Assembly (NCBI RefSeq): GCF_003334335.1 | Contig: NZ_QOWQ01000174.1 | DNA length: 531 bases | DNA from: Escherichia coli | GTDB taxonomy: Bacteria > Pseudomonadota > Gammaproteobacteria > Enterobacterales > Enterobacteriaceae | Strand: one strand, 5' to 3' | Shown: positions 1-531 of the stretch, piece after piece | Layout: the number at the start of each line of letters is the position of its first letter | Position numbering within the stretch: the first letter of the stretch is position 1 | The notes under the pieces: model-generated | Databases searched by the model: none | The model's input: only the letters and a program-made list of their open reading frames with translations | What the model was told of the DNA's origin: nothing | Position numbers and translations under genes: made by a program

Positions 1-45
1 CCCGTTGCTGAAAAAGAAAGCATCAGGCGATTAGCAGGGTATCAG

Positions 46-132
46 TTACCCGTTGAAATTTTTAAATACCTCACAATTCAGGCGGTTGACTGTTGTCTGG
101 TTTGCGGGGAGTTTGTTAAAAGAAACTGGCAT
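46..132 (-). CDS. Candidate small ORF (28 aa, MPVSFNKLPANQTTVNRLNCEVFKNFNG) with a strong SD
   Basis: On the - strand: SD AGGGGGA (145->139), 6-nt spacer, ATG (132->130), stop TAA (48->46). Spacing and SD strength are good, but the peptide is short, has no recognisable family features, and I see no clear promoter. Confidence 0.2.
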   Translation of the reverse strand: MPVSFNKLPANQTTVNRLNCEVFKNFNG

Positions 133-140
133 GGTGAATC

Positions 141-157
141 CCCCTGTGCGGAGGGGC
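141..157. repeat. GC-rich palindromic 17-mer CCCCTGTGCGGAGGGGC, copy 1 of 2
   Basis: 15 of 17 positions identical to 277-293 (CCCCTCTCCGGAGGGGC), which forms the + terminator stem. Both copies are self-complementary hairpins. Confidence 0.4.
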
Positions 158-206
158 AATCAGCAACTGGTGTTTTGTCACCGACCCTTATCCTTTCTGT
201 GCGGGT

Positions 207-530
207 TCAGGTGCTGATACTGAACTCACCGGGAGGCACCCGGCACCATGCAATGGCACATAGCGCCACTCTCCAGCCCCTCTCCGGAGGGGCTTTCTTA
301 TGGACAAAAAAAGCCCGCGCTGGGAGACGCGGGCGGCAAGGAATAAACAACAAAACGTGAAGTAATATTTCAGCTGGCGAATAATATCCGACAGTAATCA
401 CTCTGCGCAATAGCGCGGCCTTTTTCGTATTGCGGGCTGTAGTCTTCCTCCTGCCATTGTCCTGTAACTTCCGGACTTCAGCCCGTTCCCTCATCTGACT
501 CACAACATTATCCCGACCGGGAGGATTCAT
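207..530 (-). CDS. Hypothetical ORF (107 aa) from the six-frame track; doubtful as a full-length gene
   Basis: Open frame from ATG 530-528 to TGA 209-207. The N-terminal ~55 codons (530 to ~365) are basic and protein-like (MNPPGRDNVVSQMRERAEVRKLQDNGRRKTTARNTKKAALLRR...). The frame then runs through the - strand terminator (334-304) and the + strand terminator hairpin before reaching a stop, and it is antisense to the + ORF. Its RBS would lie outside the window. Confidence 0.2.
   Translation of the reverse strand: MNPPGRDNVVSQMRERAEVRKLQDNGRRKTTARNTKKAALLRRVITVGYYSPAEILLHVLLFIPCRPRLPARAFFVHKKAPPERGWRVALCAIAWCRVPPGEFSIST
275..300 (+). terminator. Rho-independent (intrinsic) terminator, + strand
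   Basis: Stem 275-282 AGCCCCTC pairs with 287-294 GAGGGGCT (8 bp, 6 G:C), tetraloop TCCG 283-286, followed by T-rich tail TTTCTTA 294-300. Sequence downstream of the same hairpin on the - strand is not T-rich, so the orientation is +. Confidence 0.6.
277..293. repeat. GC-rich palindromic 17-mer CCCCTCTCCGGAGGGGC, copy 2 of 2 (coincides with the + terminator stem)
   Basis: 15 of 17 positions identical to 141-157. Confidence 0.4.
304..334 (-). terminator. Rho-independent (intrinsic) terminator, - strand
   Basis: Stem 313-319 GCCCGCG pairs with 328-334 CGCGGGC (7 bp, all G:C or C:G), 8-nt loop 320-327. On the + strand it is preceded by A7 (306-312), so on the - strand the transcript reads GCCCGCG-UCUCCCAG-CGCGGGC-UUUUUUU-GU. 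Downstream on the + strand (GGCAAGGAATAAAC) is not U-rich. Confidence 0.7.
304..380 (-). ncRNA. Candidate small RNA on the - strand ending at the - terminator; 5' end undefined
   Basis: On the - strand a U-rich stretch (CUUCACGUUUUGUUGUUUAUUCCUUGCC, about 362->335) directly precedes the terminator hairpin with U7. This resembles the 3' module of Hfq-dependent sRNAs. A weak promoter-like pair lies upstream on the - strand: TTGCGC (410->405), 18-bp spacer, TATTAT (386->381). Confidence 0.25.
519..528 (+). promoter_or_regulatory. Shine-Dalgarno / ribosome-binding site for a + strand gene starting at the right edge
   Basis: GGGAGGA at 519-525, a near-consensus SD, then spacer TTC and ATG at 529-531. 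If the true start is the first codon beyond the window, the spacer is 6 nt, which is also well placed. Confidence 0.45.
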
Positions 531-531
531 G
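529..531 (+). CDS. Possible start codon of a downstream + strand gene truncated by the window end; product unknown
   Basis: ATG at 529-531 lies 3 nt after the SD GGGAGGA. Only the start codon is inside the window, so no protein evidence is available. The same CATG palindrome also provides the ATG of the - strand ORF 207..530. Confidence 0.3.

Follow-up and report, generated by a model that had tools for sequence, protein, structure and literature searches.

Is a sequence that resembles the start region of a gene, and that is followed by ATG codons, the remnant of a duplicated gene start? The question is raised by a 531-nucleotide (nt) stretch of the Escherichia coli contig NZ_QOWQ01000174.1 (hereafter the window), in which positions 220–255 share an exact 9-mer with the ribosome-binding site (RBS) of a carbohydrate esterase gene starting at the right edge. 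The original prediction had offered two readings of this resemblance, a relic duplicated gene start or chance. We conclude with high confidence that 220–255 is the invariant 3' core of the small RNA (sRNA) STnc100, that the other occurrence of the 9-mer falls to the Shine–Dalgarno (SD) region of the esterase gene, and that the string is common to the two by chance. According to this explanation, 220–255 would comprise the 3' strand of a helix termed P3 (220–227), the hairpin P4 (229–243) and the 3' strand of a closing helix (244–251), and the two sites would be conserved independently of each other, copy 1 for RNA structure and function and copy 2 for translation initiation, with the 8-mer CCGGGAGG plus one polymorphic A probably coinciding by chance.

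The strings themselves are where the original prediction had placed them. Rechecked in the sequence, CTGAACTCACCGGGAGG occupies 220–236, CTGACTCAC 495–503 and CCGACCGGGAGG 513–524, and a repeat finder returns the exact 9-mer ACCGGGAGG at 228–236 (copy 1) and 516–524 (copy 2) as direct repeat D4; ATG codons at 248–250 and 253–255 and an open reading frame (ORF) for 32 amino acids spanning 248–346 are also present. Were 220–255 a decayed duplicate of the 5' untranslated region (5'UTR) and start of the esterase gene, this would account for the exact 9-mer, for a nearby gapped match of 9 in 10 positions and for the ATG codons that follow. We aligned the two regions with the 5' end of the downstream gene included, taking the sequence beyond the window edge from the identical genome NZ_AP022815.1 (locus L001). 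The optimal Smith–Waterman local alignment of 210–265 against 485–640 is the bare 9-mer, beyond which the copies diverge completely (CACCCGGCACCATGC versus ATTCATGACATTTAA), and neither local nor gapped alignment finds colinear similarity above chance level past this seed into the UTR or the coding sequence (CDS). A lack of similarity beyond the 9-mer is what the original prediction itself had named as speaking against a duplication. Chance statistics, computed directly on the window, point the same way: at least one exact 9-mer direct repeat is found in 326 of 1000 dinucleotide-shuffled windows, and a lenient-gap alignment (allowing an indel and a 12-nt gap) has its score equalled or beaten in 475 of 2000 shuffles. 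A third occurrence of ACCGGGAGG lies within the esterase CDS of two other loci, L006 and L008. The resemblance of the two sites is a chance-level shared 9-mer, as the second of the two original readings had it, and no duplication is supported.

What copy 1 belongs to is established directly by the family match and by the structure of the RNA, whose parts, all on the plus strand, are as follows.

100–305, plus strand: sRNA gene STnc100 (RF02076) of the EcOnc27 type, holding copy 1 (full-length Rfam match).
129–158, plus strand: block A, consisting of a 5' helix strand (129–136), the linker AAUC and hairpin P1 (141–145 with 152–156) (invariant columns of an 11-sequence alignment).
203–227, plus strand: helix P3, in which 203–210 pairs with 220–227, the 3' strand being CTGAACTC (pair counts and minimum free energy (MFE) fold).
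228, plus strand: A228, the linker between P3 and P4 in the Rfam model.
229–243, plus strand: hairpin P4, CCGGG-AGGCA-CCCGG (Rfam consensus structure and MFE fold).
244–251, plus strand: CACCAUGC, the closing helix's 3' strand, with the ATG at 248–250 inside it and complementarity at 8 of 8 positions to GCAUGGUG at 129–136.
275–294, plus strand: intrinsic terminator of the STnc100-type RNA (terminator scan).

The RF02076 match scores 143.2 bits against a gathering threshold of 47 (E = 1e-33) and covers model positions 1–206 of 206. STnc100 exceeds the gathering threshold in all 12 of the diverged phage loci compared, and does so as well in Sakai Sp5, where it is EcOnc27; ACCGGGAGG is unchanged within STnc100 in 12 of 12 loci. 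Eight of the nine bases of copy 1 lie in P4, a hairpin that is invariant in 10 of 11 aligned sequences. The helices and their covariation are likewise observed in the alignment. P3 is paired in 100% of cells and shows two compensatory pairs (G-C to A-U and A-U to G-C), and the terminator at 275–294 shows three among homologues. In the closing helix every cell is paired, the sole changes being G-C to G-U; since this helix, P1 and P4 change nowhere or only from G-C to G-U, covariation is uninformative for them either way. Taken over all consensus helices, 98.6% of cells are paired, compared with 36–52% when the 3' partners are slid, and the covariation score of 0.129 (0.079 in shuffles) is reached in 0 of 500 shuffles. 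Folded as a single sequence, 129–303 gives an MFE structure (z = −2.8) in which the closing helix, P3, P4 and the terminator reappear. As a strand of the covarying helix P3, the left half of copy 1 is under constraint at the RNA level, which argues against its descent from an esterase 5'UTR.

The alignment of 11 sequences is a mosaic, in which 129–158 and 222–250 are invariant, a hypervariable insert lies between them and a variable 3' part with the terminator follows. The invariant blocks may represent the functional core of the RNA, with the insert and the 3' part varying by phage lineage; so strong a constraint at the sequence level on both blocks is not explained by structure alone. Several further features of the family were observed. 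The invariant blocks persist in phages that are otherwise about 70% identical or unalignable, and the phage Evi shares with the window just 36 nt (220–255) at the BLAST level. Hairpin P1 (141–157, CCCCTGTGCGGAGGGGC) and the terminator hairpin (277–293, CCCCTCTCCGGAGGGGC) are direct repeats of 88% identity (D1) and, being palindromes, are also mutually complementary (I1). In E2348/69, a strain of enteropathogenic E. coli (EPEC), the STnc100 copy of prophage PP6 (L017, 321–497) is truncated at its 5' end inside block A, beside an ISEc13 transposase gene, scores 75 bits and keeps the 9-mer.

A small protein starting at ATG 248 was considered and rejected, in agreement with the original prediction, which had called this ORF not credible. 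The ATG lies inside the conserved helix strand CACCAUGC, and in homologues a 4-nt indel and unrelated sequence come right after CACCATGCA; because of this indel and the divergent sequence, no reading frame from ATG 248 is conserved. The same disrupted frame speaks against taking the ATG codons as traces of a duplicated start. No tRNA or tmRNA was found in the window, and weak Rfam matches (OmrA-B, SgrS, Leu leader, snoZ13 and others), all well under their gathering scores, were taken as chance.

Copy 2 belongs to a different kind of element, and the gene start that follows it is directly evident.

495–528, plus strand: esterase 5'UTR and RBS, with copy 2 at 516–524 and the SD sequence GGAGG at 520–524 (alignment of 10 start regions).
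529–531, plus strand: start codon of a SASA-family (NanS-p/YjhS-type) carbohydrate esterase (RefSeq CDS WP_016238073.1, locus position 6529).

The consensus over ten esterase start regions is TCCCGGCCGGGAGGATTCATG, with GCCGGGAGG as the family consensus at copy 2. GGAGG ends 4 nt before the ATG at 529, as it does in the translation initiation regions (TIRs) of nanS-p-type esterases of Shiga toxin (Stx) and related phages, from which the window differs in carrying a minority allele, A516. Of the ten start regions, those of the window, L006 and L008 alone have this A; the match extends over 9 nt and not 8 because of this G-to-A polymorphism. The left half of the supposed duplicate, CTGACTCAC, is unconserved and reads TTTACTCAC, CTGATTCAG or CTGATTTAA among esterase homologues; the 5'UTR that holds copy 2 is conserved in 8 of the 10 esterase loci compared. 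That the two sites are independent is also seen directly: JLK-2012 and EPEC prophage PP2 have another esterase RBS, ACGGGAGAAATTCGATG, with the core motif of the sRNA still there, and Evi and 611R1 carry the invariant STnc100 core with no esterase gene, holin S coming directly after it. Copy 1 is kept irrespective of copy 2, since it is present both where the esterase is missing and alongside the other RBS type. The copies neither co-occur nor covary among relatives, copy 1 being constant while copy 2 varies. A relic duplicated gene start fails on each of these counts, namely a copy 1 that is an invariant, structured part of STnc100 present in phages lacking the esterase gene and whose left half covaries with its helix partner, and a copy 2 whose ninth matching base is polymorphic and whose left half is unconserved; we give this reading practically no credence.

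Is an RNA of this family likely to be made, and of which type would it be? For expression, Hfq dependence and size, the window RNA can be judged by analogy with published homologues. At this genomic slot, Tree et al. 2014 (PMC4104026) found Hfq-bound sRNAs arranged in convergent pairs, such as EcOnc27 against EcOnc02/AsxR 3' of stx2B, and in O157 Sakai they detected EcOnc27 as an Hfq-bound RNA by UV crosslinking and analysis of cDNA (CRAC) and by northern blot, at about 235/247 nt, with the 247-nt form destabilised without Hfq (PMC4104026). According to Paganini et al. 2025 (PMC12711010), there is overlap between the predicted STnc100 and EcOnc27, the sRNA103 of EDL933. A study of outer membrane vesicles proposed only an 11-nt complementarity of STnc100 to stxB (PMC12370729). 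The Sakai coordinates in Table S2 of Tree et al. 2014 are offset in this region by about +136 nt from the current RefSeq entry NC_002695.2 (L015) and were re-anchored by means of the AsxR sequence, as any use of the published EcOnc coordinates requires; after re-anchoring, the start of the EcOnc27 Hfq-CRAC cluster lies about 3 nt or less from the 9-mer, and the cluster extends to the terminator. Sakai EcOnc27 agrees with the window RNA in its full-length model match, its helices and its blocks A and B, which are identical to those of the window, and likewise lies 3' of the moron slot, between Q/pR' and nanS-p, where it converges on an sRNA of the minus strand. In contrast to Sakai, the window copy follows TerB and DUF3927 genes and not stx2B, it faces EcOnc08/21/42 and not AsxR, and its insert (about 159–200) and 3' part (252–274) differ, with the result that the EcOnc27 probe sequence is absent. 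By homology, the window RNA would bind Hfq and would presumably act as a base-pairing regulator, probably by pairing in trans.

The other candidate type is PasD, of which EPEC E2348/69 has two copies, PasD1 and PasD2, shown by northern blot and by RIL-seq, the sequencing of ligated, interacting RNAs (Pearl Mizrahi 2021, PMC8550237; Zhu, Shabalina & Storz 2026 preprint, 10.64898/2026.05.13.724894). Both have the block A start GCAUGGUGAAUCC, the CGGGAGG motif and the closing helix in common with the window, and in each case a DUF3927 gene precedes the RNA and a sialate esterase gene follows it directly; the 5' end of PasD2 mapped by RNA-seq is the equivalent of window G129. With the STnc100 model, however, PasD2 reaches just 41 bits, which is below threshold, and it has no P4 stem; the mapped seed UGUGAG, in the 3' part, and the 3' probe CATGCGCAGCCAGAACTCACAAGG that mark PasD (EcOnc13-type) are both absent from the window. 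Because the PasD seed and 3' part are missing and PasD2 falls below the threshold, we assign the window RNA to the EcOnc27 type of STnc100 and not to PasD. The two homologues suggest different 5' ends. Analogy with PasD2 points to about G129, after TGTTAAAAG, which resembles an extended −10 box, and the sizes of EcOnc27 point to about 73–75.

Several observations weigh against a structured sRNA that shares a string with the esterase RBS merely by chance. The 8-mer CCGGGAGG occurs only twice in the 12.5-kb locus, both strands combined, and it is conserved at both sites in most loci, as a functional link would have it. P4 shows no variation, which leaves its pairing without covariation support, and PasD2 retains CGGGAGG without the stem, suggesting, at the level of sequence comparison, that the sequence is of importance in its own right, beyond the P4 hairpin. 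In addition, the published homologue sizes conflict (172 nt for PasD versus 235/247 nt for EcOnc27), and a promoter scan found no sigma-70 consensus promoter within the window.

Could the shared 8-mer then be functional? One possibility involves a second sRNA, encoded on the opposite strand.

306–531, minus strand: Hfq-associated sRNA EcOnc08/21/42, the EPEC 'E2348C_1409.E2348C_1408.IGR' RNA (probe match; 3' end at about 306, terminator 334–313, 5' end estimated from the literature at about 487 or at about 576).

The published 35-nt northern probe for EcOnc08/21/42 matches the window exactly at 380–414, and the minus strand from 375 to 306 is 1 nt off the EPEC PP6 RNA. Of 5426 complete E. coli genomes, 992 carry this cassette, which is unannotated in RefSeq and without an Rfam family. 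P4 shows the same CCGGGAGG as the esterase RBS, and one partner could bind both. The most concrete candidate is EcOnc08/21/42 itself: should it run over the RBS in antisense, CCUCCCGG(U) would be part of it, and STnc100 might titrate the antisense RNA or the reverse. Several points speak for such mimicry. The 8-mer is conserved at both sites; the two copies form a direct repeat, by which a minus-strand transcript over 516–524 would be complementary to P4; the size of about 271 nt in enterohaemorrhagic E. coli, taken from a 3' end at about 306, would place the 5' end at about 576, past the window and across the RBS; at the esterase start there is a promoter-like ATGTCA-17-GATAAT that reads outward in antisense; and AsxR and AgvB, from the same slot, have documented anti-sRNA (sponge) interactions. 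By contrast, the EPEC counterpart, at about 182 nt, would start at about 487 and not reach the RBS. The invariance of P4 extends alike to phages lacking the esterase (Evi, 611R1), to those with another RBS type (JLK-2012, EPEC PP2) and to loci with the short AsxR or AgvB as the partner on the minus strand; five of the eight shared bases lie within the P4 stem, and the match is statistically unremarkable. We regard mimicry of the RBS by P4 as quite unlikely.

The antisense site is the only sigma-70-like promoter match in the region. Its −10 element GATAAT lies at 507–512 and its −35 element ATGTCA at 530–535, past the window edge (L001 6535–6507), with the second 9-mer in the spacer; judged by its motifs, it could be the promoter of a long minus-strand RNA. 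An RNA of about 70 nt, as a short new allele of the AsxR/AgvB slot, starting after a TATTAT box at 386–381, was considered for the minus strand and dropped, as the probe at 380–414 lies upstream of it and the reported size is about 271 nt. The minus-strand slot immediately convergent with STnc100 is also that of AsxR and AgvB (RF02703 and RF02702), which have the upstream hairpin element in common with the window, but the window minus-strand RNA is longer and has another body and terminator; neither RF02703 nor RF02702 gives any match in the window at E ≤ 1, and the conserved 3' region of about 42 nt and the terminator differ in alignment. In EPEC, the RIL-seq partners of E2348C_1409.E2348C_1408.IGR include the cfa and dppA 5'UTRs and tir. 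To the EPEC target motif, GGCAAGG, the minus strand has the complement CCUUGCC at window 340–334. Furthermore, the minus-strand RNA contains at 366–356 an exact 11-mer, UUACUUCACGU, that equals nt 40–50 of Spot 42 (spf), a score reached by 36 of 2000 shuffles in this single comparison; as Spot 42 was picked post hoc among several sRNAs, possible seed mimicry is a lead only.

A second functional link would join the 5' part of STnc100 to the esterase gene. Block A, through GGUGAAUCCCCC (133–144), might base-pair over the SD and start codon of the esterase gene (GGGAGGAUUCA(U), 519–530) and modulate or repress translation, acting in trans or inside a read-through late transcript. The two sites form the inverted repeat I3, 17 nt long and 76% complementary, with GGGAGGAUUCAU on the esterase side. 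The duplex of block A with the TIR has a predicted energy of −23.9 kcal/mol, a value that 33 of 1000 shuffled TIRs reach, and the MFE fold leaves block A single-stranded in the window copy. In the Rfam consensus, however, the CCCCU of block A is paired within P1. With the whole sRNA, the TIR duplex is ordinary: 130 of 1000 shuffles reach it, and it is outscored by most of the TIRs of other phage genes. Moreover, block A is invariant where the esterase is absent or the TIR differs (GGGAGGAATAATG, GGGAGAAATTCGATG), which means that the two do not co-vary. We hold this pairing to be improbable. The same low standing applies to a broader proposal, by which CCGGGAGG would be non-accidental, P4 mimicking the esterase RBS and EcOnc08/21/42 or block A pairing with either, in a three-RNA competition that sets nanS-p translation in lysogens; we consider it a distant prospect.

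In the favoured explanation, STnc100 is encoded in the stx/moron slot, ends at the terminator at 275–294 and faces the convergent minus-strand EcOnc08/21/42. The window corresponds to 6001–6531 of L001, within a lambdoid prophage stretch at 2673–9451, where the gene order is Q, DNA methylase, tRNA-Ile/Arg/Arg, TerB (TciA-like), DUF3927, the window, esterase, DUF1378, DUF826, holin and lysozyme. It sits exactly where stxAB lies, in an stx-negative lambdoid prophage, in the moron slot of the late region downstream of Q/pR'; in Stx2a phages, a stretch homologous to window 71–531 lies between stx2B and nanS-p. STnc100 of the window is thus found where its homologues are, in the late moron slot of a lambdoid prophage and convergent with a minus-strand sRNA. 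Two further features complete the window.

1–34, plus strand: 3' end of a DUF3927 (TciB-like) gene (RefSeq CDS end at locus position 6034).
403–425, plus strand: hairpin and T-run CTGCGCAAyrGCGCGGCCTTTTT (terminator-like match, in all slot variants).

The element at 403–425 is kept in AsxR, AgvB and EcOnc08-type loci while one flank is exchanged, and it may be a plus-strand terminator, or a recombination or promoter element bounding an exchangeable cassette.

The sRNA, the RBS and the convergent sRNA architecture have all been described already, and nothing here is new in kind. If the shared string did link STnc100, the antisense RNA and nanS-p translation, this would be the first concrete cis-proximal target of STnc100. 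The value of the present analysis lies in annotation. STnc100 is unannotated in RefSeq and present in about half of complete E. coli genomes, and what looks like a decayed gene start, an SD-like GGAGG followed by ATG codons, is the most conserved part of a structured prophage sRNA that, by analogy with its homologues, would be Hfq-associated. The stx slot of this stx-negative prophage has the same architecture of a convergent sRNA pair as that of Stx phages.

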